Shown: positions 18,494 to 50,245 of the stretch, piece by piece
Position numbering within the stretch: the first letter of the stretch is position 1
How the letters are laid out: each line of letters opens with the position of its first letter
Source: Pseudomonadota bacterium
GTDB taxonomy: Bacteria; Myxococcota_A; Polyangia; JAAYKL01
Assembly (NCBI GenBank): GCA_023229365.1
Contig: JALNZK010000002.1
Location: forward strand, 190,343-254,342
DNA: 64,000 bases
Direction of reading: 5' to 3'
The notes under the pieces: model-generated
Seen by the model: the letters and a program-made list of their open reading frames with translations, nothing else
Databases searched by the model: none
What the model was told of the DNA's origin: nothing
Position numbers and translations under genes: made by a program

Positions 18494-19588
18494 TTATATT
18501 TCTGGATATTCCATAATCTTTCCTTCGAAATTTCTTAAAATAACCTTCTCTGGGGTTTGAGAGATCAAATAAGTTGGCAATATTGGAATTTTACCACCAG
18601 GAGTGTCTATCACATATTGAGGGATGGCCAAACCAGATAATCTGCCTCTTAGATGCTCCATAATCTCAATGCCCTTGGCGACCTTTGTTCGAAAGTGATT
18701 GGCACCATTCACTATATCACATTGAAATAAGTAATAAGGTCTTACCCGCATTCTGACAAGTTTGCGGCACAATTCTTCCTGAATAAACTTATCGTCATTC
18801 ACGCCTTTCAATAAAACGGATTGATTATTGACAGGGATACCATTGTCGATGAGTTTTGCACAAGCTGCTTGGGACTGGGCCGTGATTTCCCGAGGATGAT
18901 TGAAATGAGTGTTCACAAAAACTGGTTGGAAATCCTTGAGCGTTTCCACCAATTCGTCATCAATTCTCATTGGTAAAACTACTGGAACTTTGGTGCCGAT
19001 CCTGATGATTTGAACCGATTCAACAGCCCTGACTTGACTGAGAATAAATCGTATGTCATATCTGTCTAATAGCAATGGATCGCCACCAGAAAGAATCACA
19101 TCAGTTATCTCAGGGTGATTTTTAAGATACTCTTTAATATCAGCCACTTCACCATCGGTTAGATTGCAATAGAAAGGACTACCAACTGTTCTTTTTCTGG
19201 TGCAATAACGACAGTAAACACTGCATTGGGCTGTGCAAATAATGAGTGCCCTATCTCTATAACGATGCACAAGATGAGGCACCGGCATTTGTTGGTCTTC
19301 TTGGAGAGGATCATCTACGCAGCAATCTCCCGATAACTCAGCTATATCAGGAACACACATCCTATAGATAGGATCAGATGAGTTGTATTGCTCGATGAGA
19401 GAGAGATAATAAGGCGTAATAGAGAAAGGAAATGTTTGACTGGCCTCTTGAGAAATTGGCAATCCTTTTTTTGCAGCATCTCCTACTGATTGTATCCTGT
19501 TCCTAAGCTGCCACTTCCAATCATTCCATTTACCAGGAGGCTCTTCGGCAACTTCCATGTTACCGAATAAATTCGATTCATTATCCAT
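18494..19588 (-). CDS. radical SAM aminomutase, KamA/EpmB (lysine 2,3-aminomutase) family
   Basis: TAQCSVYCRYCTRKR (the KamA-type CxxxCxxC context) and ILSGGDPLLL. 364 aa, close to EpmB size. Confidence 0.6.
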   Translation of the reverse strand: MDNESNLFGNMEVAEEPPGKWNDWKWQLRNRIQSVGDAAKKGLPISQEASQTFPFSITPYYLSLIEQYNSSDPIYRMCVPDIAELSGDCCVDDPLQEDQQMPVPHLVHRYRDRALIICTAQCSVYCRYCTRKRTVGSPFYCNLTDGEVADIKEYLKNHPEITDVILSGGDPLLLDRYDIRFILSQVRAVESVQIIRIGTKVPVVLPMRIDDELVETLKDFQPVFVNTHFNHPREITAQSQAACAKLIDNGIPVNNQSVLLKGVNDDKFIQEELCRKLVRMRVRPYYLFQCDIVNGANHFRTKVAKGIEIMEHLRGRLSGLAIPQYVIDTPGGKIPILPTYLISQTPEKVILRNFEGKIMEYPEI

Positions 19589-20509: not shown

Positions 20510-21715
20510 TCATAGCTTTTTCTCTGGATTGTCCCAAACTAATCGTTCTTTGGGAGCATTGATAGATTCGCACAAAAAGGGCGTGGGGTCGGCAATATAA
20601 TCATGCTTCGGTTGTCCTAGCTTCCAAGACTTAGAGGCAGATTTTGTGCCGTGTTTGTAAAGCTCAATATGCAGCATTGCTCTACTATGACCTGGGATGT
20701 CAGGTCGTTCTTTGCCTTCTTTTAGCACCGGAATCACTTCGCCAAGGGGTTGTCCTCTTACAATGATGTCCCCAACCGAAAACGTATATGGCTTAATTTC
20801 ACCATAACAAACCACTCCTGATCGGCCTTCAACCAAAAGGCAATCAGTGTTATTCCACCAGGGAGATTCATCCTGCTCGCCAGTAAAATGCTCAGTGGCT
20901 ACCACTCTGCCAGATTCTACCGCATGGGCAATAGTGCAATTTTCTCTTGACCGAATATGATGATGAACCTCTGATACATAAAATCGGGGTGTATACAAAT
21001 CGACTCCAGTATGATTGGATTGGCGGCGAGGGAATGCAAAAGCCCCAGGATGGTAATTGATGGGAATACCAGGACAATGTTCAATGGGGAATTGCCACTT
21101 CATAAGCCATTTTAGTTTTTCCACAATGAGTGAAATATCAGCCATTGCCCCTTTGCCCTCATCCCCACATGCCAACATCTTTTTCTGAGGAGGAATAACT
21201 TGGAATTGATCCCCAAATAATTTGACAAGTTTGAATAAATGATCTTCGGTAAATGGACTCTCCCACATACGAGTATTCATAGCGGGAGCAACAATCACTG
21301 GTTTCGCCCAATCCCAAGCTCGAAAAACGCTGGTCAAAAGATTGTCGCAAAGACCATTCGCCATTTTGGCCAAAGTATTAGCCGACAAGGGGGCGATTAC
21401 AAAAACATCAGCCCAGTCACGTAGATTGATGTGAACAACTGGGTCATCTTTCTTCCATACATCGGATATTGCCGCAGCCTGCGACGGTGGCGGCTGTGGA
21501 GCAGGTCGGCTCCATTGCCATTCATCGATGTCTCTCCACAATCTGCAATTTAACAGATCGAACCCAGTAATATCTTCTTTGTCGATAAAATGCATTGCCG
21601 ATTCAGTGGAAACAATTTCGACATTGCCAATTTCCGAAAGTTGTTGGCACATTTTCTTTACCAAAACTGTAGCAACCGAACCAGTGATCCCTAAGAGAAT
21701 GTTTGGTTTATTCAT
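20510..21715 (-). CDS. coaC: phosphopantothenoylcysteine decarboxylase (CoaC, HFCD flavoprotein) fused to a C-terminal M23-peptidase-like domain
   Basis: N-terminal half has ILLGITGSVA, DWADVFVIAPLSANTLAKMANGLCDNLLTSV, PVIVAPAMNTRMW and MLACGDEGKGAMA (the CoaC/Dfp signature). C-terminal half has HTGVDL, FSVGDIIVRGQPLGEV and HSRAMLHIELY (M23/LytM-like HxxxD and HxH motifs). Confidence 0.55.
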   Translation of the reverse strand: MNKPNILLGITGSVATVLVKKMCQQLSEIGNVEIVSTESAMHFIDKEDITGFDLLNCRLWRDIDEWQWSRPAPQPPPSQAAAISDVWKKDDPVVHINLRDWADVFVIAPLSANTLAKMANGLCDNLLTSVFRAWDWAKPVIVAPAMNTRMWESPFTEDHLFKLVKLFGDQFQVIPPQKKMLACGDEGKGAMADISLIVEKLKWLMKWQFPIEHCPGIPINYHPGAFAFPRRQSNHTGVDLYTPRFYVSEVHHHIRSRENCTIAHAVESGRVVATEHFTGEQDESPWWNNTDCLLVEGRSGVVCYGEIKPYTFSVGDIIVRGQPLGEVIPVLKEGKERPDIPGHSRAMLHIELYKHGTKSASKSWKLGQPKHDYIADPTPFLCESINAPKERLVWDNPEKKL

Positions 21716-32448: not shown

Positions 32449-32768
32449 TTTTGTTTCTCCACTTTCATTTTTGTTTCCACCCCATCTCCTATCGAAGTAT
32501 GGGTGATGGTTAAATATTTTGGATGATAGTAAATTTTGTTTACAACCCCTAATTTTAAATTAATGGGAATATTGTAATAACAACGTAGTTTGGTAATGCG
32601 GCCATCATCAAAATAAAAAAACACTGCTGTGACTGAGTTATCCTCAGGCACACACTGTATTTTTTCTAATTTGCCTTCGCACATCGAGTCTTCGGTTATT
32701 GATGGCGAAACGCTACCCGATTTGCAACCAACTAATAGCACAAGAGCCAAAAGACTAAATCTCCACAT
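32445..32768 (-). CDS. putative lipoprotein
   Basis: MWRFSLLALVLLVGC lipobox. Confidence 0.4.
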   Translation of the reverse strand: MWRFSLLALVLLVGCKSGSVSPSITEDSMCEGKLEKIQCVPEDNSVTAVFFYFDDGRITKLRCYYNIPINLKLGVVNKIYYHPKYLTITHTSIGDGVETKMKVEKQK

Positions 32769-33870
32769 TTTGACTATCCTTACATGCTGTTACATTAAAT
32801 ACCGGACATGATCTGCATTGTTTAACAAATTTACAATTACAACCACAAGAGGATGTTGTAATTGTTGCTCGCCATTGAATGGCCTTTTTGGCAAACCACA
32901 CATCTTTGAGAAAGTCTTGACAATTTAATACATCAAGACCTTCTTCCCATCCTTTTTCGCCTTCGCAGAAAGAGCAAGCAAAATATTTCCCTTCACAATT
33001 GATATATGAGGAAAAGAGCCCCGATTCACACGGCTCAGCCAGGATAAGCATTTGTTCTTCATCAGCTTGTCCTTCTACAGTTTTGAAAAACAAAGGGGCG
33101 GAACAGGAATCGAACCCCGCACCAACACCCTTGTCTTTGGAGTAAGCAATTAACTTTTTGTATTTTTTGACTGTTGAAATAGGATGAAATGCGTCAGTAT
33201 TATGACCCTTGGGCTTATATTGCAGATAAACTATGGCATTGACTTTTTTAAGCCGAGGATCAGAAGCAACATCATCAATAATATTAAATGCTTTTTCCCA
33301 TGTTTCTTCTGACAACATGAAGTGAATGTTTACTGCATTAAGTGTGTTTCCAGGTTTGCCAATTTCATCAGTGAATAATTTTATAGCATCATAGCTTTTT
33401 TCTTTATTCACAATGCTAACAGCTAAGGCTCCACAAAGTCTACCGGCAAGCTCAGCAACCACAGGCGTTACATCTTGTCCTGATGTGGTAAAATTGGGAA
33501 TTATTCCTTTGCTTCTAGCATACATTGCCATTTTAAAGAAGTCAGGATTGCTATGCATATCGCATAACCCAAAAGCAATTTGCGTGAGGACTTTCGGCAT
33601 TTTGTCCAAAATAATTTTGAACTGCTCGAAAGTCATATTGACTTCTTCTTCATTGGGGCCGTTTCGCTTATAACAGAATTTGCAGCCGCTTTTGCACTTG
33701 CCAGAAGAAATCTCCAAATCTAAAATTTCTGGACCATAGGGCGAAAAAGCAGGATCATCATCTAAGTTAGTGCCCCATCTTACAAACAATCCATTTTCTT
33801 TATGGAAGGTATAGTTATACCCTGAAGAACGCACCATTTTCATCTTAACCGTGTCTTTAATCTGCATCAT
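32755..33870 (-). CDS. radical SAM enzyme with C-terminal Cys-rich (SPASM/twitch-like) domain
   Basis: CKSGCKFCY (CxxxCxxC) near the N-terminus. C-terminus has CEGKYFACSFCEG...CGCNCKFVKQCRSCPVFNVTAC. Confidence 0.55.
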   Translation of the reverse strand: MMQIKDTVKMKMVRSSGYNYTFHKENGLFVRWGTNLDDDPAFSPYGPEILDLEISSGKCKSGCKFCYKRNGPNEEEVNMTFEQFKIILDKMPKVLTQIAFGLCDMHSNPDFFKMAMYARSKGIIPNFTTSGQDVTPVVAELAGRLCGALAVSIVNKEKSYDAIKLFTDEIGKPGNTLNAVNIHFMLSEETWEKAFNIIDDVASDPRLKKVNAIVYLQYKPKGHNTDAFHPISTVKKYKKLIAYSKDKGVGAGFDSCSAPLFFKTVEGQADEEQMLILAEPCESGLFSSYINCEGKYFACSFCEGEKGWEEGLDVLNCQDFLKDVWFAKKAIQWRATITTSSCGCNCKFVKQCRSCPVFNVTACKDSQNVEI

Positions 33871-39161: not shown

Positions 39162-39421
39162 CGAAAAGGCCCTGTGTAAAGAAACCCTTCAAGTCTTGTG
39201 AGATTTGGTGGAGGAACTGGTTTCATTCCTTTTGGGAATGGAATCCTCTCACGAAGAACATCTTCATAATAGTCGCAATCACAAATGACTGGACGATTTG
39301 CAGAACGATCTTCAGGCATATTATTCCTGCGGAGCGGGCTCTCTATGGATAGCGTCGAACACTTCACGGCGATGGACGGGCACCTCCTTGGGGGCCTCGA
39401 CACCCAATCGTACCTTGTCAC
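39128..39421 (-). CDS. hypothetical small protein with C-terminal CxxC
   Basis: 97 aa, ends ...[10 protein letters not shown]. Confidence 0.3.
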
Positions 39422-39564
39422 CTCTAATCTCCACTACAGTGATTGTAATATCGTCGTTGATTACAATCGATTCGTTTTTCTTGCGGCTAAGTACCAGCAT
39501 GATACACTCCTTTGTTGAAGAAAGTAACTAAACTAAGTATAGCAACTTGAAGGTCAACTGTCAA

Positions 39565-40727: not shown

Positions 40728-41099
40728 TTATTGTCGTTCTTTGGGGTGAGTTTTGGATTTTAAAGTTACAATAATAGCTCCTAAATTCCAATCATTTTCC
40801 ACCGCATAAGAAAAATTATGTCGATCTAGCACATCTTTGACTAATTGCTGCATTATTGGGCTGTTGCCCGTTATTATCCGAGCAGGCAGATTTTTGAGAA
40901 AAACAAAATTCTCAACCAATCTGTCTACTTGATGATGCCTAACACTATGTAGGTCTAATTCATCCATAGCGGAGACTAAAGGAATCGAACCTTCACCGGG
41001 GTTTAAGCCGGGCTTGTTTTCGAAACAAGTGCGACAAAGCCAATATTCGCCTAATCTCCATTTTTTGTCAATTCGTTCCAAGAACCAATTCTTTTCCAA
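40728..41099 (-). CDS. hypothetical protein
   Basis: 123 aa. Confidence 0.3.
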   Translation of the reverse strand: MEKNWFLERIDKKWRLGEYWLCRTCFENKPGLNPGEGSIPLVSAMDELDLHSVRHHQVDRLVENFVFLKNLPARIITGNSPIMQQLVKDVLDRHNFSYAVENDWNLGAIIVTLKSKTHPKERQ

Positions 41100-41499: not shown

Positions 41500-42117
41500 T
41501 TATTTTTTCACAAATGAGAAACCAGCAAGGTCTTCATTTTGGCTTTCTCTGTCTTGGTCGAAACCATGAAAAAGATGATCCAATATTGCTTTGCTGTCTA
41601 CCAATCCACAATGCTTGTAATGTACCACTTTCTCTCCACCATGTCGCACCACAACAATTATTGCTTTGATTCTAATGAGCCAATCTACCACATGCTTATA
41701 AAGCAATGCATCCATTCCCTTATCTGTCATTTCTTCTATTGTTAGTAATTCGTATTCCTTATAATAACCACGAGGGGTTATGATAAAACCACAACGATCA
41801 GGACGGAGGTTGGCTGCTAATTTCTTGTTTCGTAGCCATGTGCATTTATAATCTCTGCACAACTGGGGACGGGTTTCATAACAATCACAACCCCCACCCT
41901 CTCTTATGTATGCACACATTGCTTTTGCAGGTTTGTCCCCTTGTTCAAAAAGAAAACAACAGGCATAACAATCACCACAACTATGTGGACGATCTCGAAA
42001 TAATTGCTGCTTTTTATTCCGCTCAGCAGCTTTCTTTTTCTTTTTTTCTAGCTTTTTATTCATAGTGCCCAGGACAGGAGTCGAACCTGCACGGGATTGC
42101 TCCCGCCAGCCCCTCAA
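41500..42117 (-). CDS. Cys-rich hypothetical protein
   Basis: CGDCYACCF...CDCY...CTW. Confidence 0.35.
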   Translation of the reverse strand: MRGWREQSRAGSTPVLGTMNKKLEKKKKKAAERNKKQQLFRDRPHSCGDCYACCFLFEQGDKPAKAMCAYIREGGGCDCYETRPQLCRDYKCTWLRNKKLAANLRPDRCGFIITPRGYYKEYELLTIEEMTDKGMDALLYKHVVDWLIRIKAIIVVVRHGGEKVVHYKHCGLVDSKAILDHLFHGFDQDRESQNEDLAGFSFVKK

Positions 42118-42148
42118 GCTGGTGCGGCTGCCATTTCGCCACCTGGGC
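42066..42148 (-). tRNA. tRNA-Leu (anticodon GAG), class II
   Basis: Hand fold: acceptor gcccagg/cctgggc, anticodon loop ttGAGgg, long variable arm, T-loop GGTTCGACTCC, discriminator A. Confidence 0.6.
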
Positions 42149-42769
42149 TTACAAATGTTGCTTATCTATCCAACCCCTGCTTTTTCTTCCTTTGCCACGA
42201 TTTCTTCCAGCGAAGGTAGGCAATTGCATATCGCAGTTACCACAAACCAACCTTACATTTTCTAATCTATGGTCTTCGGGATCGCCGTTGATGTGATCCA
42301 AAATAAGCGGGATAGGTTTTCCCATCCATTCGCTATTATTGCAGATTTCACATTGCCTTCCTCTAGTTTCAGCTAAATACTTTTTCGCCATGCTCGGATT
42401 ATATCCGTAACCACAATTGGTTGGCAACAAAGCATTACTACTCTCGATCAATTCCTTCTTTTTCTTCCATTTCGATTCATTATTGCAGGCGTAGGAACAG
42501 TATTTTTTGTTCGTGGTTAAAGAGCCACAATTTAAACACTTGCAAAGTACCGGGCTTTGGGTGTTCCTCGCCACTCCTTTGTTGTTGAAGCTTGCCGAAC
42601 AGCCACTACTACAGAAGTCATTCCTTCTTTTCTCATACGCTATTGTGAGTCCACAATTTTTACATAATTTAGGCTTCAGCAAGTACCGATCAAGGCATCT
42701 TTTGTGCTTTTCTCGCTGATAATGTCTGTTTTTTAATCCGCCTAATCTTCCACATTCGCTTTTATTCAT
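42149..42769 (-). CDS. HNH endonuclease with N-terminal zinc-ribbon repeats
   Basis: ILDHINGDPEDHRLENVRLVCGNCDMQ (HNH). CKNCGLTIAYEKRRNDFCSSGC and CLNCGS...YCSYAC modules. Confidence 0.55.
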   Translation of the reverse strand: MNKSECGRLGGLKNRHYQREKHKRCLDRYLLKPKLCKNCGLTIAYEKRRNDFCSSGCSASFNNKGVARNTQSPVLCKCLNCGSLTTNKKYCSYACNNESKWKKKKELIESSNALLPTNCGYGYNPSMAKKYLAETRGRQCEICNNSEWMGKPIPLILDHINGDPEDHRLENVRLVCGNCDMQLPTFAGRNRGKGRKSRGWIDKQHL

Positions 42770-42927
42770 TGCTACCTCTGTTTCTTGAAAATAATTATAA
42801 GATTATATAGTAATCCTACATTCATTTTTCGAGAAACAAATTTGGCAAGAGCTACTTATTGGAATTACACCAATGCCTTCGCATTACGAGTGCGATATAC
42901 TGCTGACTATACGAAAGTAGCATAAGC

Positions 42928-43013
42928 GGAAGGTGTGGGAGTCGAACCCACAAGGCTTTTTACACTCGTCCGCTTTCCAAGCGGGTGCCGTCGCCAATCG
43001 GCTAGACCTTCCT
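42928..43013 (-). tRNA. tRNA-Ser (GGA), class II
   Basis: Acceptor ggaaggt/accttcc, anticodon loop ttGGAaa, long variable arm, T-loop GGTTCGACTCC. Confidence 0.55.
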
Positions 43014-43331: not shown

Positions 43332-43414
43332 CGGAAGCGACAGGATTCGAACCTGCAACCCGTCTTAGGGGCAACGGTTTTCAAGACCGCCCGCTAACCA
43401 TTCGCCTCGCTTCC
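43332..43414 (-). tRNA. tRNA-Ser (UGA), class II
   Basis: Acceptor ggaagcg/cgcttcc, anticodon loop ctTGAaa, long variable arm, T-loop GGTTCGAATCC. Confidence 0.55.
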
Positions 43415-45523: not shown

Positions 45524-45558
45524 AATAAACTTCCTTGTGTTTGTATCATCTTGCAGAG

Positions 45559-45634
45559 TAGCACCAGGGGGATTCGAACCCACCACTACCCAGTGTTTAA
45601 AACTGGTGACTTCTGCCAATTGGTCTATGGTGCC
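45559..45634 (-). tRNA. class I tRNA-like gene, anticodon UAA (Leu-type anticodon, short variable arm)
   Basis: Hand fold: acceptor ggcacca/tggtgct with G1-U72, D-loop aattggcag, anticodon arm ccagt-ttTAAac-actgg, T-loop GGTTCGAATCC, discriminator A. Confidence 0.45.
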
Positions 45635-45639
45635 ATGAG

Positions 45640-45713
45640 TAGCGAGGAGGGGATTCGAACCCCTACTGTCTGGTTCCTAAGACCAGTGCCGCTGCCAATT
45701 GGGCTACCTCGCC
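45640..45713 (-). tRNA. class I tRNA-like gene, anticodon UAG (Leu-type anticodon, short variable arm)
   Basis: Anticodon arm ctggt-ctTAGga-accag. Backbone identical to the gene at 47763..47836 except the anticodon arm. Confidence 0.45.
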
Positions 45714-45715
45714 AT

Positions 45716-46033
45716 TTATGATTGTTCTATATCCTGAACATCAACTCTTTTCCTAAGTTCTTTGAAAATTTCGTGTGCAGCTTCTTTTCCAGTTGTTGCA
45801 GCATCAAGCTTCTTTATCAATTCTGTTGTGCCTAATTTCCACACAGCATATTCTTCATCGGTTTCACAGAGTATTAAATTCAGTTTACCAAACCGAACTA
45901 CAGTCGAATGAGGATTGTCAGACAACCTTCGTAACGATTGTGCTGTTCCTGTGTTGACTCGGATAACAAGGTCTACATCTGAGTTTGCGTTTGGCTTGCC
46001 GTAAGCTCTACTGCCCGTAATAAATGCGTTCAT
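45716..46033 (-). CDS. minimal nucleotidyltransferase (MNT/MntA-like)
   Basis: GSRAYGKPNANSDVDLVI (GSxxxGxxxxxSDxDL Pol-beta NTase motif). Confidence 0.5.
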   Translation of the reverse strand: MNAFITGSRAYGKPNANSDVDLVIRVNTGTAQSLRRLSDNPHSTVVRFGKLNLILCETDEEYAVWKLGTTELIKKLDAATTGKEAAHEIFKELRKRVDVQDIEQS

Positions 46034-46311
46034 TTTTTTACCTTGTCATCGTTCACTGGCCAATGCTTTCTGCCTTCTGAAACATGCTCTAATGCTTCTC
46101 GGATTATTTCAGGTGATTCCTCAATCTCAACAAAAGCCCACCCTGGCGGGCAATTGCCTACATTTTTCTTGGGAGATACCATCACCCCCAAGTGTTCGCC
46201 ACAAGTTGCTAGCCCGCCACCAATCGATTTGAGAAATTCCGCATAACTGAGATTATCTGGAACTTCCAAATCATTCCCATGTTCATCCTTGCGACCAATG
46301 ACTTTCATTTT
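46030..46311 (-). CDS. small protein overlapping the MNT gene by 4 nt; possible HEPN-like partner
   Basis: Contains REALEH (an Rx4H motif). Start trimmed to internal MKVIGRK to avoid the tRNA overlap. Weak call. Confidence 0.25.
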   Translation of the reverse strand, partial: KMKVIGRKDEHGNDLEVPDNLSYAEFLKSIGGGLATCGEHLGVMVSPKKNVGNCPPGWAFVEIEESPEIIREALEHVSEGRKHWPVNDDKVKK

Positions 46312-46320
46312 TTCTCCAAG

Positions 46321-46406
46321 CGGAAACGGAGGGAGTCGAACCCCCAAGGCTTTTTACACTCATCTGTTTTCAGAACAGGTTTCGTCACCAATCGATTTGC
46401 GTTTCC
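46321..46406 (-). tRNA. class II Ser-like tRNA, anticodon UGA with atypical loop (C at position 33)
   Basis: Variable arm gagtgtaaaaagccttggg is nearly identical to tRNA-Ser(GGA). Anticodon loop tcTGAaa. Confidence 0.4.
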
Positions 46407-46411
46407 GAAAG

Positions 46412-46485
46412 TAGCACCAGAAGGATTCGAACCTTCACTGAACAGTGTTTGAAACTGTTGCCGCTGCCAATTGGGCTATGGTGCC
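46412..46485 (-). tRNA. class I tRNA-like gene, anticodon CAA
   Basis: Anticodon arm acagt-ttCAAac-actgt. Same acceptor/D backbone as the gene at 45559..45634. Confidence 0.45.
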
Positions 46486-46490
46486 ATAAG

Positions 46491-46564
46491 TAGCATCGGT
46501 GGGATTCGAACCCACAACCTCTACATTTTGAGTGTAGCGACTCTGCCAGTTGGTCTACGATGCC
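46491..46564 (-). tRNA. class I tRNA-like gene, anticodon CAA
   Basis: Acceptor ggcatcg/cgatgct, anticodon arm ctaca-ctCAAaa-tgtag, T-loop GGTTCGAATCC. Confidence 0.45.
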
Positions 46565-46570
46565 AAAATA

Positions 46571-47266
46571 TCAAACAACCCCTAGTTGTGTCAGGATTGT
46601 CGCATGTTGCTCAGTCATGGTTGTCAGTTGTGTATTGAGGGATGCAAGTGATGCTTCCAAATCCGACTTCTCTGCCAGTATTACAGCATGCTGTTCTGTC
46701 AAGACTGCTAATTGTGCATTTAAAGATTCAAGAGATGCTTCCAAATCTGCTTTTTCTATCAACAGTTCTTCCGCTGGTGTTTCTCCACTTGCATCAATGC
46801 CCGCATTTACAACCACCAGTCTTTCAGTCTTTGTTAGTATGTCAGCATTTATCAGGTCAATAGATGCTCCACTTGCATCAACGCTCGCACTTACAACTGC
46901 CAGTCTTTCAGTATTTGTTTGTATGCCAGGATTTATCGCATTTATTGCGGCAACAAGTTGTCGCAATTGATATTCTAATGAAAACAGTAATGCCATGCCC
47001 CCAACAACTTGAGCAGCTAAAGGGTGAGTATAAACCAATTCCCAAATATTATCAAAAAATTCAACTTTGTCCTGATCTGCACCCGGATATAGTTGTTTTG
47101 TGGTGTAATTGTAGGGTCTAAAAACAATTGTCAATGGTTGTTTTGTAGCATCAACGTTTATCGTTTGCACGTTAAATGCCACAATATAAAGCTCGTTATA
47201 CACAGCCTCAACAGTGGCAGGAACTATTAGTGGGCTTGGATTAGGAATCAGAGGTAAATCAGCCAT
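46571..47266 (-). CDS. coiled-coil protein with internal ~66-bp tandem repeats
   Basis: Repeated ...TERLAVVSASVDASGASIDLINADIL... units and DLEASLESLNAQL heptads. Confidence 0.4.
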   Translation of the reverse strand: MADLPLIPNPSPLIVPATVEAVYNELYIVAFNVQTINVDATKQPLTIVFRPYNYTTKQLYPGADQDKVEFFDNIWELVYTHPLAAQVVGGMALLFSLEYQLRQLVAAINAINPGIQTNTERLAVVSASVDASGASIDLINADILTKTERLVVVNAGIDASGETPAEELLIEKADLEASLESLNAQLAVLTEQHAVILAEKSDLEASLASLNTQLTTMTEQHATILTQLGVV

Positions 47267-47280
47267 ATTTTTTCCTTTGT

Positions 47281-47502
47281 TTAATTCAAATGTACTGTAC
47301 CACGACCTTTGGTGGTTCTTACGATTTTTGTTATACCATCTTTTTCAACTTTTACAATACGAAGTGGATCACTTGGATACAAAGAGTCAAATGCGTCTAC
47401 ATAACCATCGCAATAAGCTCTTGTTTTATGCTCTATAAAAGATACTTTACGCCATCCAAGATCGCCACTGTTTCTCTCTACGTAATACATTTTTTTCTCC
47501 AA
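47281..47502 (-). CDS. hypothetical small protein
   Basis: 73 aa. Confidence 0.3.
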   Translation of the reverse strand: MEKKMYYVERNSGDLGWRKVSFIEHKTRAYCDGYVDAFDSLYPSDPLRIVKVEKDGITKIVRTTKGRGTVHLN

Positions 47503-47503
47503 G

Positions 47504-47578
47504 TGCCACGAGCGAGATTCGAACTCGCACTGTCTAGTATCTCGGACTAGCGACTCCTACCAATTGGTCTACCGTGGC
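47504..47578 (-). tRNA. class I tRNA-like gene, anticodon GAG (C at position 33)
   Basis: Acceptor gccacgg/tcgtggc, anticodon arm ctagt-ccGAGat-actag, T-loop GAGTTCGAATCTC. Confidence 0.35.
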
Positions 47579-47584
47579 GTACAT

Positions 47585-47740
47585 CACATATAATGATCTT
47601 GATCTTTTTCTCGCCAATATTCATCCTCTTTTTGCCGATACTCAGCATACTCTGCGTTTGTATAGTATTGATACGATCCACAGGCACACGGATTACAATT
47701 ACATATTCTGCATACTGCTGCATTATCTATATCATTCATT
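47585..47740 (-). CDS. small Cys-rich ORF between tRNA genes (below the 60-aa cutoff of the ORF track)
   Basis: Hand-translated as MNDIDNAAVCRICNCNPCACGSYQYYTNAEYAEYRQKEDEYW... Confidence 0.2.
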
Positions 47741-47762
47741 ATTATTTCTCGGGTGTGTAAAG

Positions 47763-47836
47763 TAGCGAGGAGGGGATTCGAACCCCTACTGGATAGTTCC
47801 TGAAACTATTGCCGCTGCCAATTGGGCTACCTCGCC
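47763..47836 (-). tRNA. class I tRNA-like gene, anticodon CAG
   Basis: Anticodon arm atagt-ttCAGga-actat. Rest identical to the gene at 45640..45713. Confidence 0.45.
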
Positions 47837-47842
47837 ATAAAG

Positions 47843-47920
47843 TGGCTGTGGCGGGTCTCGAAGCCGCAAAACATCACAAAGTTCTGGACTTTGCCGCTTT
47901 TCCGATTTGCGTACACAGCC
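47843..47920 (-). tRNA. atypical tRNA-like gene (degenerate T-arm; anticodon loop tcCAGaa)
   Basis: Acceptor ggctgtg/cacagcc pairs well, but T-loop is cttcgagac and position 33 is C. Possible pseudo-tRNA. Confidence 0.25.
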
Positions 47921-47925
47921 ATAAG

Positions 47926-48008
47926 TGCCCAAGGAGGGACTTGAACCCTCAAGAGATTTCTCTCGCCAGATTTTGAGTCTGGTGCGGTTGCCATTTCGCC
48001 ACCTGGGC
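47926..48008 (-). tRNA. tRNA-Leu (CAA), class II
   Basis: Acceptor gcccagg/cttgggc, anticodon loop ctCAAaa, long variable arm, T-loop GGTTCAAGTCC. Confidence 0.55.
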
Positions 48009-48013
48009 ATAAG

Positions 48014-48085
48014 TGGAGCAGGTGGGTATCGCACCCACGTCTACAGCTTTTCAGACTGTCACTAATCTACCTCAGTTACTGCTCC
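48014..48085 (-). tRNA. tRNA-Phe (GAA) candidate, atypical T-loop (tgcgata)
   Basis: Anticodon arm acagt-ctGAAaa-gctgt, 72 nt. Confidence 0.4.
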
Positions 48086-48090
48086 ATAAG

Positions 48091-48163
48091 TGGTAGGGGT
48101 CGGAGTCGAACCGACACTTCCACGTTTTCAGCGTGGCACTCAGACCAGCTAAGTTACCCTACC
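48091..48163 (-). tRNA. tRNA-Phe (GAA)
   Basis: Anticodon arm ccacg-ctGAAaa-cgtgg, T-arm gtcgg-ttcgact-ccgac. Confidence 0.5.
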
Positions 48164-48614
48164 TCATTCCATCATGTATTTCTCTATGACAATTACTACA
48201 AACAAGCACACATTTTTTTACTTCTTCGATAAGTTTGTCCCAACGTGCTAACATTCCTTTGCTGGAAAATCCAAAACTTTTTTCTTGTTTTTCATCCATG
48301 TTTTTGTGATGAAACTCAAGAGCCTTCATACAACGATTATACCCACATTCTGAACAAGCACCGCCACACATTTTGACTAATTCAATCTTTCTGTTCTTTC
48401 TGGCTTTTCTTTGCCATTTTTTATATTTTTCATTATCACGCTTTCTTTTTTCTTCAGTTGTTAGCGGGATATGTTGAATTTCTAGTTTTTTTGTGTTGCC
48501 ACAACCAAAAGGCGAACATTCAAGGCAATATTTGCGATTGTGCAGGTTTCTTATTTTTCCATCTATTTTAAGTTTTGATGGGAACTTTTTTTTACATAAT
48601 TTACATAATGGCAT
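48159..48614 (-). CDS. HNH endonuclease with zinc-ribbon N-terminus
   Basis: EFHHKN...CVLVCSNCHREIHDG (HNH). CKLCKKKF...YCLECSPFGC. Confidence 0.55.
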   Translation of the reverse strand: MPLCKLCKKKFPSKLKIDGKIRNLHNRKYCLECSPFGCGNTKKLEIQHIPLTTEEKRKRDNEKYKKWQRKARKNRKIELVKMCGGACSECGYNRCMKALEFHHKNMDEKQEKSFGFSSKGMLARWDKLIEEVKKCVLVCSNCHREIHDGMR

Positions 48615-48688: not shown

Positions 48689-48781
48689 TGGGAAGTGACG
48701 GAATCGAACCGCTCAAAGTCATACCACCCCAAATTCTTTAACGACTAACAGATTTACAGTCTGCCTTGGGGAACACCTCCC
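48689..48781 (-). tRNA. 93-nt tRNA-like element with canonical acceptor and T-arm but no clean D/anticodon arms
   Basis: Acceptor gggaggt/acttccc, T-loop GGTTCGATTCC. Internal ccccaa...ttgggg long-range helix. Confidence 0.25.
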
Positions 48782-48944: not shown

Positions 48945-49026
48945 TGTGCCGAGCCGGAATTGAACCGACAAGTCCCGAAGGAGTCTCGTTTACAGCGAGG
49001 TGGGCCTGCCAATGCCCAATCGACAC
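48945..49026 (-). tRNA. tRNA-Tyr (GUA), class II
   Basis: Acceptor gtgtcga/tcggcac, D-stem gggc/gccc, anticodon loop ctGTAaa, variable arm with tcc-ttcg-gga hairpin, T-loop GGTTCAATTCC. Confidence 0.5.
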
Positions 49027-49705: not shown

Positions 49706-50023
49706 CTATTCCTGTATTTGCTTGATAACCATGAAATGTTGTTTTTTGCCGATTCGAATTATTCCCCATCCTGGCCAAATGAATTTAACCAGCGATTCAG
49801 GATCGGTTACTTTTTCGCCATTCCAAGACAAAGAACCTTCTTTAACTTTGCGTCTAACTTCACTGATGCTTGGTAAGGCACCGCCATCAACACAAATCTG
49901 TGCTATTTTTCCATCCTGCACTGTTTTAGGACGCATCCACCACCACATGCTGGCAAATGTTTCTTGACAAACAGCCTTGGGCTTGTTTAGTATTTCCCAT
50001 AATTCATCAAATGTCAACATCAT
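49706..50023 (-). CDS. hypothetical protein (start trimmed to internal MM to clear the tRNA)
   Basis: The ORF-track N-terminal 33 codons are the reverse complement of tRNA-Ser(GCU). Confidence 0.3.
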   Translation of the reverse strand: MMLTFDELWEILNKPKAVCQETFASMWWWMRPKTVQDGKIAQICVDGGALPSISEVRRKVKEGSLSWNGEKVTDPESLVKFIWPGWGIIRIGKKQHFMVIKQIQE

Positions 50024-50037
50024 AATTTCTCCAAAAG

Positions 50038-50126
50038 CGGAAGTGACTAGAATCGAACTAGCACTGGCTTTGACACCAGAACGGTTTAGCAAACCGCCGC
50101 AACAAACCAATATTTGCCTCACTTCC
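50038..50126 (-). tRNA. tRNA-Ser (GCU), class II
   Basis: Acceptor ggaagtg/cacttcc, D-stem gcaa/ttgc, anticodon arm gcggt-ttGCTaa-accgt, long variable arm, T-loop AGTTCGATTCT. Confidence 0.5.
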
Positions 50127-50161: not shown

Positions 50162-50245
50162 TGGTCTCGGCGGGAGTCGAACCCGCACGGGCATTACACC
50201 CAGGAGATTTTAAGTCTCCATTGTCTACCATTCCAACACGAGACC
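50162..50245 (-). tRNA. tRNA-Leu (UAA), class II
   Basis: Acceptor ggtctcg/cgagacc, anticodon loop ctTAAaa, long variable arm, T-loop GGTTCGACTCC. Confidence 0.5.

Follow-up and report, generated by a model that had tools for sequence, protein, structure and literature searches.

A recent review describes tRNA-Leu as long-armed everywhere but in animal mitochondria (PMC9976931). In Escherichia coli, leucine identity resides in A73, the A15-U48 pair, G18G19 and A20a, and the long arm is dispensable (PMC9976931). The sole biochemical study of a bacterial short-armed form treats the Streptomyces case as rare (PMC6614811); the type I tRNALeu(CAA) of Streptomyces coelicolor is leucylated by its own LeuRS (ScoLeuRS), which makes no use of A73, and was not leucylated in vitro by the E. 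coli LeuRS or by one Streptomyces LeuRS (PMC6614811). An anticodon-swapped tRNALeu(CGA) of the T5-like phage OSYSP puts leucine at TCG codons in E. coli, with the identity of the OSYSP Leu gene used not confirmed from the primary paper (PMC13596443). Yet hundreds of phage genomes, those of T5-like coliphages included, carry armless tRNA-Leu genes while keeping the arms of Ser and Tyr tRNAs.

The window examined in the present study is a 64-kb stretch of DNA that forms part of a jumbo phage genome of at least 228 kb. Its minus strand carries six tRNA genes of 74–76 nt, arranged in tandem with spacers of 4–5 nt, which are real leucine tRNA genes without the usual long extra arm. ARAGORN and the general tRNA model of Rfam (RF00005) agree on their strand, ends and anticodons (Table 1), the latter with scores of 46.2–60.8 bits against a gathering score of 29 and E-values of 1e-6 to 1e-10 for the 64-kb window. 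The first-pass annotation, folded by hand, had proposed six minus-strand class I tRNAs with Leu anticodons, and both programs place them where it did, ARAGORN with the same anticodons on the same strand; dissection of the genes returned its anticodon loops exactly. Its statement that class II tRNA-Leu genes (GAG, CAA and UAA) share the cluster also holds, and a 79-nt tRNA-Leu(CAG) has to be added to them.

Table 1 Features of the tRNA island in the window. Positions of the six class I genes are Rfam RF00005 placements
Feature	Position	Strand	ARAGORN call	Characteristics	Evidence
Class I tRNA-Leu(UAA)	45559–45634	-	45558–45634 (taa)	Loop TTTAAAC, G1.U72, A73	ARAGORN; Rfam 46.2 bits
Class I tRNA-Leu(UAG)	45640–45713	-	45639–45713 (tag)	Loop CTTAGGA, variable loop ACAGT, G1.U72, A73	ARAGORN; Rfam 60.8 bits
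Class I tRNA-Leu(CAA), copy 1	46412–46485	-	46411–46485 (caa)	Loop TTCAAAC, G1.U72, A73	ARAGORN; Rfam 57.1 bits
Class I tRNA-Leu(CAA), copy 2	46491–46564	-	46490–46564 (caa)	Loop CTCAAAA, variable loop AGGTT, G1.U72, A73	ARAGORN; Rfam 60.0 bits
Class I tRNA-Leu(GAG)	47504–47578	-	47503–47578 (gag)	Loop CCGAGAT, C33 for U33, A37, G1-C72, A73	ARAGORN; Rfam 49.5 bits
Class I tRNA-Leu(CAG)	47763–47836	-	47762–47836 (cag)	Body as in UAG gene except anticodon arm	ARAGORN; Rfam 55.7 bits
79-nt tRNA-Leu(CAG)	47843–47920	-		Unpaired 9-nt U-rich variable loop TGATGTTTT, C33	ARAGORN; Rfam
Class II tRNA-Leu(GAG)	42066–42148	-			ARAGORN; Rfam
Class II tRNA-Leu(CAA)	47926–48008	-			ARAGORN; Rfam
Class II tRNA-Leu(UAA)	50162–50245	-			ARAGORN; Rfam
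tRNA-Ser(CGA)	40970–41059	-		Class II	ARAGORN
tRNA-Thr(CGU)	42850–42921	-	Not called	Non-canonical T loop	Rfam 54.1 bits
tRNA-Ser(GGA)	42928–43011	-		Class II	ARAGORN; Rfam
tRNA-Ser(UGA)	43332–43414	-		Class II	ARAGORN; Rfam
Candidate Ser-like tRNA-like gene	46322–46406	-		Class II, loop TCTGAAA, C33, weak D stem	
Two tRNA-Phe(GAA)	48014–48085 and 48091–48163	-			ARAGORN; Rfam
tRNA-Tyr(GUA)	48945–49026	-		Class II	ARAGORN
tRNA-Ser(GCU)	50038–50126	-		Class II	ARAGORN
HNH homing-endonuclease-like ORF	42149–42769	-			Pfam HNH_3; PHROG HNH families, E = 2e-21
Second HNH endonuclease-like ORF	48159–48614	-			phrog_2255, E = 4.6e-30
105-aa ORF	49706–50023	-		TyrRS C-terminal (S4-like) tRNA-binding domain	PF22421

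In all six genes the anticodon, within a 7-nt loop, is of a Leu type, NAA or NAG (UAA, UAG, CAA twice, GAG and CAG), and the canonical T loop (TTCGAAT), GG-containing D loop (G18G19) and A73 that had been noted earlier are present in each. They share a signature D-arm, U8 A9 G10 M C C A14 A15 Y U G18 G19 Y A G, in which the D stem has 3 bp and the 13.22 pair is non-Watson-Crick, and all elements of bacterial Leu identity (A73, A14, A15-U48 and the elbow formed by G18G19 and the T loop) are present in 6/6. The stem-loop of more than 10 nt that defines the variable arm of class II tRNA-Leu is replaced by loops of 5 nt (GUAGU(G), ACAGU, UCAGU, AGGUU, ACAGU and CCAGU), that of the UAA gene being readable as 5 or 6 nt. 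Apart from a bulge or mismatch in the T stem of the UAA gene every stem is intact, and of the CCA end only C74 is encoded. The C33 and A37 of the GAG isoacceptor are unusual for a decoding tRNA. An AAYUGGYAG D loop, a 3-bp D stem and A15-U48 are common to the six and to class II Leu tRNAs of the same phage loci; together with the shared A73 these features fit descent from class II tRNA-Leu through loss of the arm.

A G1-U72 pair had been ascribed to all six genes and was found in five, the GAG gene having G1-C72. Two pairs of genes had likewise been described as alike except for the anticodon arm, as if diversified by arm swapping. This is borne out for the genes starting at 45,640 and 47,763, whose seven differences all fall within gene positions 28–45 (P ~3e-4 for random placement), but not for those starting at 45,559 and 46,412, which have a common acceptor stem and a near-identical anticodon arm but unlike D and T stems.

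The six genes are members of a known, widespread and rarely discussed family of class I tRNA-Leu, found in tailed phages and also on Actinomycetota chromosomes, and are not a unique recoding device. The D-arm 20-mer TAGMCCAAYTGGCAGNNGNC matches at least 119 IMG/VR loci, and the tRNAs carrying it there are without exception (116/116) of class I length (74–79 nt) with Leu anticodons; the D-arm motif was limited to Leu-anticodon tRNAs in genomic matches as well (90/90). Among 167 unique class I Leu genes, 163 have A73, 156 have A15-U48 and 146 have a 5-nt variable loop, which places the identity elements at a frequency of 93–98% across the family. These loci were picked with a motif from the six genes themselves, for which 79 genes not selected by motif provide a partial control (77 with A73, 74 with A15-U48 and 67 with a 5-nt loop). 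In an alignment of 66 sequences, compensatory changes occur at 19 of the 20 predicted pairs of a cloverleaf with a 3-bp D stem and without a variable arm, and the family is under clear purifying selection. In GenBank, relatives in phages of Vibrio, Bacillus, Enterococcus and Streptomyces are annotated plainly as tRNA-Leu. The premise of the first-pass annotation that phage tRNA-Leu are class II was therefore mistaken, the short-armed kind being common in phages and present in Actinomycetota chromosomes (PMC6614811). Loss of the arm is specific to Leu, with 62 of the 63 Ser tRNAs and all 23 Tyr tRNAs from the same phage loci keeping theirs long.

Since the family is widespread in phages and actinobacteria, the six genes are probably ordinary leucine decoders. 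The earlier suggestion of mischarging, in which class I bodies would be charged by a synthetase other than LeuRS and Leu codons read as another amino acid, could draw on the atypical architecture, the G1.U72 pair and the odd C33 of the GAG gene. G1.U72 is, however, equally common in class II Leu tRNAs of the same phage loci (14/41) and occurs in E. coli tRNALeu(UAA) (PMC6614811). Every Leu identity element is present, and G3.U70, G73 and the long arm are absent from the six genes (positions 3-70 are C-G and position 73 is A). When the anticodon arm was deleted and the bodies were compared with 939 phage tRNA bodies, the nearest neighbours of each gene were class I Leu; the first non-Leu match ranked 25th–64th, and the best non-Leu isotype varied between Thr, Lys, Glu and Arg with no foreign isotype recurring. 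We thus rejected the body of another isotype joined to a Leu anticodon, the Ala, Ser and Phe identity elements also not being found. Recoding by five anticodons over six Leu codons would moreover change ~9% of all residues, and related tRNAs insert leucine in vivo (PMC13596443) or are leucylated in vitro (PMC6614811). We regard recoding as extremely improbable.

The genes might alternatively be decoys or sponges, tRNA-like RNAs of no use in translation that soak up a tRNA-targeting defence enzyme, as the first-pass annotation had also suggested. The island also has a full class II Leu set, so that the class I genes are redundant, and overexpression of phage tRNAs can blunt Septu (PMC13096335), but bait for an enzyme that recognises the arm should have retained it. 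The retention of A73, A15-U48 and covariation in the anticodon stem, along with Leu anticodons that form a full set without redundancy, points to selection for charging and decoding, and class I genes are the only Leu tRNAs in 78 of 113 loci. Gene copy number follows Leu codon use in the phage (TTG, 35% of Leu codons, three CAA genes; TTA, 26%, two UAA genes), and a decoy role is quite improbable. Even less credible, at a very low probability, is that the six are non-functional, decaying duplicates left by homing-endonuclease-driven rearrangement of the island. The two HNH ORFs inside the island, the mosaic module pattern of the genes and the degenerate look of two neighbours would fit such decay, against which stand scores of 46–61 bits for the general tRNA model, intact stems, canonical elbows and the match to a family under purifying selection. 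A pseudogene or tRNA-like decoy was rejected on the scores, on stems that are intact save for a single bulge in the T stem of the UAA gene, and on the covariation of the family. The tRNA-like genes at 46,322–46,406 and 48,690–48,781 are degenerate in appearance; the former reaches 38.1 bits with the Rfam tRNA-Sec model, under its gathering score, and has 88.6% identity over 70 nt to the tRNA-Ser(UGA) of locus L014.

The Leu identity elements, the restriction of the family to Leu anticodons and the covariation of the cloverleaf make Leu decoding, one of the roles originally put forward, well supported. Judging from sequence, the six genes are most probably genuine, functional Leu isoacceptors of the class I family that the host LeuRS would leucylate; we infer expression, charging by the host LeuRS and any advantage of armlessness. 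They would be transcribed together with the adjoining minus-strand ORFs and tRNAs, after which host RNase P and 3' processing would trim the transcripts and the CCA-adding enzyme would complete the ends. The host LeuRS would then leucylate the tRNAs. LeuRS does not read the anticodon and in bacteria has no need of the long arm; what it relies on (A73, A14, the Levitt pair A15-U48, the elbow of G18G19 and the T loop, and a D stem of 3 bp) is all kept in these genes. Given that two LeuRS enzymes failed to leucylate the Streptomyces tRNA in vitro, charging of class I tRNA-Leu by an arbitrary host enzyme is not guaranteed. Between them, the five anticodons could decode every one of the phage's six Leu codons, coverage that the class II Leu set of the island would duplicate. 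Within the island the genes may have diversified by duplication and by exchange or replacement of the anticodon arm, which would cost no identity because LeuRS ignores the anticodon. A nuclease-resistant scaffold, a further role raised by the first-pass annotation, is plausible and, if true, would have more to do with the variable arm than with the anticodon. The reason we prefer for the short arm is twofold: Leu would be alone among class II isotypes in having a synthetase that tolerates loss of the arm, and an armless Leu tRNA would escape factors recognising or cutting long-armed tRNAs, the latter being a hypothesis that is, on balance, somewhat unlikely.

The composition of the island bears on this last point. 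Nineteen of the 20 tRNA or tRNA-like genes of the window are Leu, Ser, Tyr or Phe, and the island also holds a Thr(CGU) gene. The diverged relative L246 has the same restricted island, Thr(CGU) included, and clusters limited to Leu, Ser and Tyr (and Phe), with both classes of Leu, recur in L103, L114 and L115. The variable arms of the island's class II Leu genes are 15–16 nt long, and the 79-nt tRNA-Leu(CAG), with homologues in L115 and L246, is a separate short-armed lineage. The 105-aa ORF matches PF22421 at E = 1.9e-6 (28.1 bits, cut-off 27), and its best PDB matches are TyrRS C-terminal domains; it sits between tRNA-Ser(GCU) and tRNA-Tyr, a position kept in L246. The window also codes for a T4-like polynucleotide kinase/phosphatase (Pnkp).

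The gene content of such an isotype-restricted island hints that the phage may be answering an attack on tRNAs with long arms. Both the armless Leu tRNAs and the whole Leu/Ser/Tyr island would then owe their existence to inactivation of class II tRNAs by the host or by the phage's own shut-off; the phage would resupply Ser and Tyr tRNAs, whose synthetases require the arm, and would provide Leu tRNAs that escape recognition by the attacker. This proposal is compatible with leucine decoding, to which it adds a specific selective reason, and we hold it as a tentative suggestion that is possible but not favoured. It is consistent with the restricted composition in the window, in L246 and in the other clusters, with the Leu-specific loss of the arm, with the presence of Pnkp and the TyrRS-domain-like ORF, and with known defences that act on variable loops or class II tRNAs: retron-Eco7 PtuAB and Septu cut tRNA-Tyr in its variable loop, which T5 tRNA-Tyr resists (PMC13096335), and AbiEii appears to favour class II tRNAs, with MenT3 directed to tRNA-Ser and MenT1 to tRNA-Leu (bioRxiv 10.64898/2026.01.19.700257). 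Against it, Phe and Thr are not class II isotypes, and other isotypes may be encoded elsewhere in a genome of at least 228 kb of which the window covers 64 kb. Class I Leu genes also occur in phage arrays of full repertoire and as a housekeeping gene in Actinomycetota, so that armlessness does not need a defence rationale. We know of no defence that targets the arm of tRNA-Leu. A more elaborate version, which we consider doubtful, is that the island serves as a dedicated rescue kit for long-armed tRNAs against a bacterial defence, or the host shut-off exerted by the phage itself, that reads the arm. Its parts would be the full Leu, Ser and Tyr sets, Phe, Thr(CGU), the small protein, whose TyrRS domain would be the one that grips long variable arms, and the T4-like RNA-end-healing kinase/phosphatase; Leu tRNAs would escape by shedding the arm, a course open to Leu alone because LeuRS does not need it. 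If true, it would explain the spread of armless Leu tRNAs through many phage lineages.

For the window itself the result is mainly a correction, in that the genes are real and belong to a large existing family of leucine tRNAs. Beyond it, the family offers a natural experiment on LeuRS recognition, as the E. coli LeuRS rejects the Streptomyces tRNA and evidently accepts the T5-like one, and a supply of compact Leu scaffolds, independent of the anticodon, with which to engineer the genetic code. It also gives a lead, namely that defences against long-armed tRNAs may shape phage tRNA repertoires.

Several known systems resemble the locus in part. In phage tRNAs that evade defences, among them anticodon-loop variants and the T5 tRNA-Tyr that withstands retron-Eco7 and Septu (PMC13096335, PMC10264068), a phage isoacceptor departs from the host tRNA in exactly the element that a defence enzyme recognises, as the window genes might; resistance is demonstrated in those cases, whereas for the window genes it is hypothetical, and here a complete arm has been removed. 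Schlafen-11 of mammals, an antiviral nuclease specific for class II (Leu/Ser) tRNAs as cited in PMC13191261, is a precedent for the kind of attack that the counter-defence proposal assumes, although it is eukaryotic and a bacterial counterpart acting on Leu tRNAs was not identified here. Animal mitochondrial tRNA-Leu likewise lacks the long variable arm and uses A73 and A14 as identity elements (PMC9976931), but has reduced elbows and a dedicated LeuRS, in contrast to the canonical G18G19 and T loops of the window genes. In OSYSP (MF402939.1), both Leu genes found in the first 50 kb of the record are 77-nt class I genes, and this T5-like tRNA-Leu gene is present in 388 GenBank records. The OSYSP tRNAs have A73, A14A15, U48 and a 3-bp D stem as the six do, with G1.U72 in the UAA gene, and act as a Leu donor in E. 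coli whatever the anticodon (PMC13596443). They differ in a GUUUU variable loop, an encoded CCA and a D-arm in which 13.22 is G.A, with G at position 9 of the UAG gene and A at that of the UAA gene; the T5-like form probably constitutes a subfamily of its own or lost the arm independently.

The closest counterpart on a chromosome is the S. coelicolor type I tRNA-Leu(CAA) (Fan et al. 2019, PMC6614811), which shares with the six a class I cloverleaf, a 5-nt variable loop (ACAGY), A73 and A14, coexists with class II Leu tRNAs and is charged by a single LeuRS. The D-arm TAGCCCAATTGGCAGCAGGCA and ACAGT loop of Streptomyces chromosomal genes are common to the window family, and the window genes have 63–75% identity to the Streptomyces gene. 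The latter is, however, one chromosomal housekeeping isoacceptor with G1-C72, whereas the window has six phage genes with five anticodons and mostly G1.U72. Among cultivated phages, BLAST with a window gene returned 127 records with genes of 74–78 nt annotated as tRNA-Leu, including tRNA-Leu-3 of Vibrio phage KVP40, tRNA-Leu(tag) of Bacillus phage vB_BcoS-136 and genes of Enterococcus EFDG1-like phages, as well as of Streptomyces, Mycobacterium and Gordonia phages. Long-armed Ser and Tyr tRNAs stand beside class I Leu in these arrays, which usually have between one and four of the latter in a repertoire that covers nearly all isotypes, whereas the window combines six class I and four longer Leu genes in an island of few isotypes.

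ARAGORN predicted 17 tRNA genes in the whole window, every one on the minus strand between 40969 and 50245, among them six tRNA-Leu genes of 75-77 nt (ARAGORN counts C74). The Rfam general tRNA model recovered the same six at 46.2-60.8 bits, against a gathering score of 29, and Infernal aligned each as a complete cloverleaf with a 5-nt variable loop and a non-Watson-Crick 13.22 pair. The first-pass annotation had folded these genes by hand as short-armed tRNA-like genes with leucine anticodons; Rfam returned exactly its coordinates, ARAGORN agreed on strand and anticodons, and a position-by-position dissection bore out the anticodon loops, T loops and discriminator base, A73 and the T loop TTCGAAT being present in all six. 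The G1-U72 pair that had been ascribed to the whole set occurs in five genes, whereas the GAG gene has G1-C72. These are real tRNA genes and not chance folds. In every sequence-level feature they agree with the class I (short variable loop) tRNA-Leu family, and they fit neither canonical class II (long-armed) tRNA-Leu nor recoding chimeras nor pseudogenes. An 8-bp acceptor stem formed through T(-1)-A73 was considered and dropped, as the combination of G1.U72 and A73 is usual in this family and found in class II Leu too.

Coordinates of the tRNA genes, tRNA-like genes and ORFs discussed (window positions unless a contig is named)
Feature	Position	Strand	Remarks
Lysine-2,3-aminomutase-like radical SAM enzyme	18494-19588	-	
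Flavoprotein (Dfp/CoaBC-type domain)	20510-21715	-	
Second radical SAM ORF	32755-33870	-	
CsrA homologue, phage-encoded	39321-39500	-	E = 4.5e-27; just downstream of tRNA island
HNH homing-endonuclease-like ORF	42149-42769	-	Inside island
tRNA-Thr(CGU)	42850-42921	-	Rfam alone, 54 bits; non-canonical T arm (TTGGTGTAATTCCAA), discriminator U
tRNA-Leu(taa), class I	45558-45634	-	ARAGORN + Rfam
tRNA-Leu(tag), class I	45639-45713	-	ARAGORN + Rfam
Minimal nucleotidyltransferase (MNT-like), 105 aa	45716-46033	-	PF01909, E = 7e-5; motif GSRAYG..DVDL
Ser(UGA)-like tRNA-like gene	46322-46406	-	Rfam, missed by ARAGORN; weak D stem
tRNA-Leu(caa), class I, CAA1	46411-46485	-	ARAGORN + Rfam
tRNA-Leu(caa), class I, CAA2	46490-46564	-	ARAGORN + Rfam
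tRNA-Leu(gag), class I	47503-47578	-	ARAGORN + Rfam
tRNA-Leu(cag), class I	47762-47836	-	ARAGORN + Rfam
79-nt Leu(CAG)	47843-47920	-	Unpaired 9-nt variable loop; second short-armed Leu lineage
Second HNH homing-endonuclease-like ORF	48159-48614	-	Inside island
Tyr(GUA)-like tRNA-like gene, 92 nt	48690-48781	-	Rfam, missed by ARAGORN; aberrant D region, long variable region
TyrRS C-terminal S4-like tRNA-binding domain, 105-aa ORF	49706-50023	-	PF22421, E = 1.9e-6, above cut-off
T4-like polynucleotide kinase/3'-phosphatase, 312 aa	54484-55422	-	N-terminal P-loop kinase, C-terminal PNK3P/HAD phosphatase
Glu/Gln-tRNA synthetase class I catalytic domain, N-terminal part, 245 aa	59921-60658	-	PF00749, E = 4e-22
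OSYSP tRNA-Leu, first gene (UAG or UAA)	L245 3693-3769		77-nt class I
OSYSP tRNA-Leu, second gene (UAG or UAA)	L245 9291-9367		77-nt class I

By sequence, the six genes belong to a large known class I tRNA-Leu family. Their D-arm (TAGMCCAAYTGGCAGNNGNC) was found by motif scan in at least 119 IMG/VR loci, and all 116 motif-carrying tRNAs that ARAGORN detected in the loci listed had a leucine anticodon (CAA 34, UAA 32, UAG 28, GAG 13, CAG 7, AAG 2) and a length of 74-79 nt. Many of the listed loci hold two to five class I Leu genes differing in anticodon, and in 78 of 113 class II Leu was absent from the retrieved stretch. With one window gene as query, BLAST matched 127 GenBank phage records, all labelled plain tRNA-Leu, including Vibrio phage KVP40 tRNA-Leu-3 (78 nt), Bacillus phage vB_BcoS-136 tRNA-Leu(tag) (75 nt), Enterococcus EFDG1-like phages (74 nt), together with numerous phages of Streptomyces, Mycobacterium and Gordonia. 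An exact 27-mer of the body common to the UAG and CAG genes had no match in IMG/VR. The premise that phage tRNA-Leu is class II, from which the six genes had first been judged anomalous, is contradicted by these records. Armless tRNA-Leu is thus frequent in phages, although the long arm is reviewed as universal outside animal mitochondria (PMC9976931), and this wide spread is a more interesting outcome than the window genes themselves. No paper in the literature searched treats class I tRNA-Leu of phages as a subject of its own or points out its commonness, which does not prove that none exists elsewhere.

Several lines of evidence point to functional leucine tRNAs. Among 167 unique class I Leu genes from the viral loci listed, 163 have A73, 156 the A15-U48 Levitt pair and 146 a 5-nt variable loop; for the 79 lying outside the search motif, and so unselected by it, the counts are 77, 74 and 67. 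RNAalifold on 66 sequences gave a cloverleaf that has a D stem of 3 bp and lacks a variable arm, in which 19 of 20 predicted pairs hold through changes on both sides. The conserved elements match the identity set of E. coli LeuRS, namely A73, A14, A15-U48, G18G19 and A20a, with anticodon and long arm dispensable (PMC9976931). When bodies were compared without the 17-nt anticodon arm among 939 phage tRNA bodies, each window gene was nearest to class I Leu genes; the first non-Leu body ranked 25th to 64th, and the top non-Leu isotype varied by gene, so that none of the six is the body of a different isotype with a Leu anticodon put in. G1.U72 is no anomaly, being the commonest 1-72 pair of the family (42 of 66 sequences) and occurring in 14 of 41 class II Leu genes of the same listed loci. 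All six Leu codons are in use in the phage, and the copy number of the tRNA genes tracks codon frequency (TTG 35%, three CAA genes; TTA 26%, two UAA genes). The suggested mischarging by another synthetase finds no support, the bodies being Leu-like and unlike recoding chimeras, and nor does a role as decoys.

The UAG and CAG genes differ at seven positions, all within gene positions 28-45 (two compensated stem pairs and positions 32, 34 and 44), the other 57 being identical; such clustering has P ~3e-4 under random placement and supports the view that the anticodon arm was replaced or was the focus of diversification. Anticodon-arm swapping, proposed earlier for two pairs, is supported for this one only; in UAA/CAA1 the acceptor stem is shared and the anticodon arm almost the same, but the D and T stems are unlike. 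The D-arm of CAA1 is common to UAG and CAG, and the D stem of UAA to CAA2 and GAG. This mosaic is consistent with recombination among paralogues, which would have taken place in an island bearing homing endonucleases. On the IMG/VR viral contig L115 the order class II Leu, about 80-nt Leu, class I Leu is the same as in the window with different anticodons, which shows that Leu isoacceptor genes frequently shift anticodon.

A permissive Rfam scan added three genes, Thr(CGU), Ser-like and Tyr-like, bringing the island to about 20 tRNA(-like) genes: six class I Leu, one 79-nt Leu(CAG), three class II Leu (GAG, CAA, UAA), four Ser and one Ser-like, one Tyr and one Tyr-like, two Phe and one Thr. 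The Ser-like and Tyr-like genes could be degenerate copies or unusual tRNAs. Thr(CGU) likewise occurs in the island of L246, a diverged relative. The 79-nt Leu(CAG) has C33 and a C.C at T-stem position 53-61, and represents a second short-armed lineage (D-arm GUACGCAAA..AAAGCGGCA) with further members at L115 8867-8947 and L246 57-133 and 256-366; its U-rich variable region varies widely among homologues (6, 9, 11 and ~41 nt). C33 replaces the near-universal U33 in the anticodon loops of 47504-47578, 47843-47920 and 46322-46406 (minus strand). Among the Leu(GAG) genes of the listed IMG/VR set, 4 of 19 in class I and 2 of 8 in class II have C33, against only ~1% of the other Leu isoacceptors. 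The island's HNH ORFs have homologues in many other phage tRNA arrays (tblastx matches, ~25 loci), and the MNT-like ORF is sandwiched by class I Leu genes.

Gene content (DnaB-like helicase, PolA, gp32, RecA nearby, a sigma-like factor; GC 40%) marks the window as phage-like, and the same genes are found on two larger contigs, one in ENA (ERZ27247350, k141_1691469, 228 kb) and one from JGI (340 kb), which shows that its genome is a jumbo one. The 40-52 kb stretch matched no GenBank phage by Megablast, and the adjacent sigma-like protein retrieved no relatives from IMG/VR; by PolA, the closest relative is an unannotated 595-kb uncultured phage (36% identity). The Glu/Gln-tRNA synthetase match is limited to residues 3-91 (PF00749 profile positions 3-85 of 314), and this protein may be a GluQRS-like tRNA-modifying enzyme. 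The two radical SAM ORFs and the flavoprotein form an unusual auxiliary set for a phage.

The long arm was kept in 62 of 63 Ser and 23 of 23 Tyr tRNAs of the same viral loci listed. This agrees with what is already established: SerRS and bacterial TyrRS use this arm and bacterial LeuRS ignores it, so that Leu is the sole class II isotype free to drop it. The island and its armless Leu genes might also be read as a counter-defence against attack on long-armed tRNAs. In the window, the island is restricted to Leu, Ser, Tyr, Phe and Thr(CGU), and L246 (1-3568) shows an identical choice of isotypes, similarly ordered and with the same CsrA gene after them, whose position relative to the island is kept. 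Clusters of only Leu, Ser and Tyr (and Phe) with both Leu classes occur in the viral contigs L103, L114 and L115, whose tblastx matches to the window are confined to tRNA genes. Within the island, the TyrRS-domain ORF is flanked by tRNA-Ser(GCU) and tRNA-Tyr; its top PDB matches are all bacterial TyrRS C-termini, and it has just four homologues among 5.8 billion proteins (JGI label 'tyrosyl-tRNA synthetase'), one of them, 65% identical, at the equivalent place in the island of L246. The window also encodes the T4-like kinase/phosphatase, which is the end-healing part of T4-type tRNA repair; the window shows no recognisable RNA ligase to go with it, and PADLOC returned nothing meaningful for the island ORFs. 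We nevertheless consider a counter-defence role unlikely: the 64 kb examined belong to a genome of at least 228 kb, class I Leu also occurs in full-repertoire arrays and on bacterial chromosomes, and we know of no arm-directed attack on tRNA-Leu in bacteria.

In bacterial genomes the D-arm motif fell into two kinds, solo chromosomal class I Leu genes and, in other lineages, tRNA arrays. Solo genes read CAA in Streptomyces and UAG or UAA in Micromonospora, Actinoplanes, Pseudonocardia, Nocardioides and Asanoa (e.g. contigs L125, L126, L139 and L149), so that housekeeping armless Leu in Actinomycetota is not confined to Streptomyces Leu(CAA). The Streptomyces gene has the D-arm and the ACAGT variable loop in common with the window genes, and the type I tRNALeu(CAA) of S. 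coelicolor is leucylated by its own LeuRS (PMC6614811). In a preprint, E. coli serT was replaced by an anticodon-swapped 'bacteriophage-derived (GenBank MF402939.1) tRNALeu(CGA)', reading TCG as leucine (PMC13596443). MF402939.1 is the T5-like coliphage OSYSP, whose record annotates no tRNAs; ARAGORN found 23 in the tRNA region of its first 50 kb. Both Leu genes found there are class I, with A73, A14A15 and a GUUUU variable loop, the UAA gene also having G1.U72, and the Ser and Tyr genes are 88-90 nt; the UAA gene recurs in 388 GenBank records, chiefly T5-like Salmonella and Escherichia phages. Taken with the preprint, this indicates that an armless phage tRNA-Leu, from either the UAG or the UAA gene, acts as a leucine donor in E. 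coli, even though the type I tRNA of Streptomyces was not charged by E. coli LeuRS in vitro (PMC6614811). That E. coli LeuRS reportedly refuses this tRNA, whereas the Leu genes of T5-like E. coli phages are all class I (OSYSP, first 50 kb), merits biochemical comparison.
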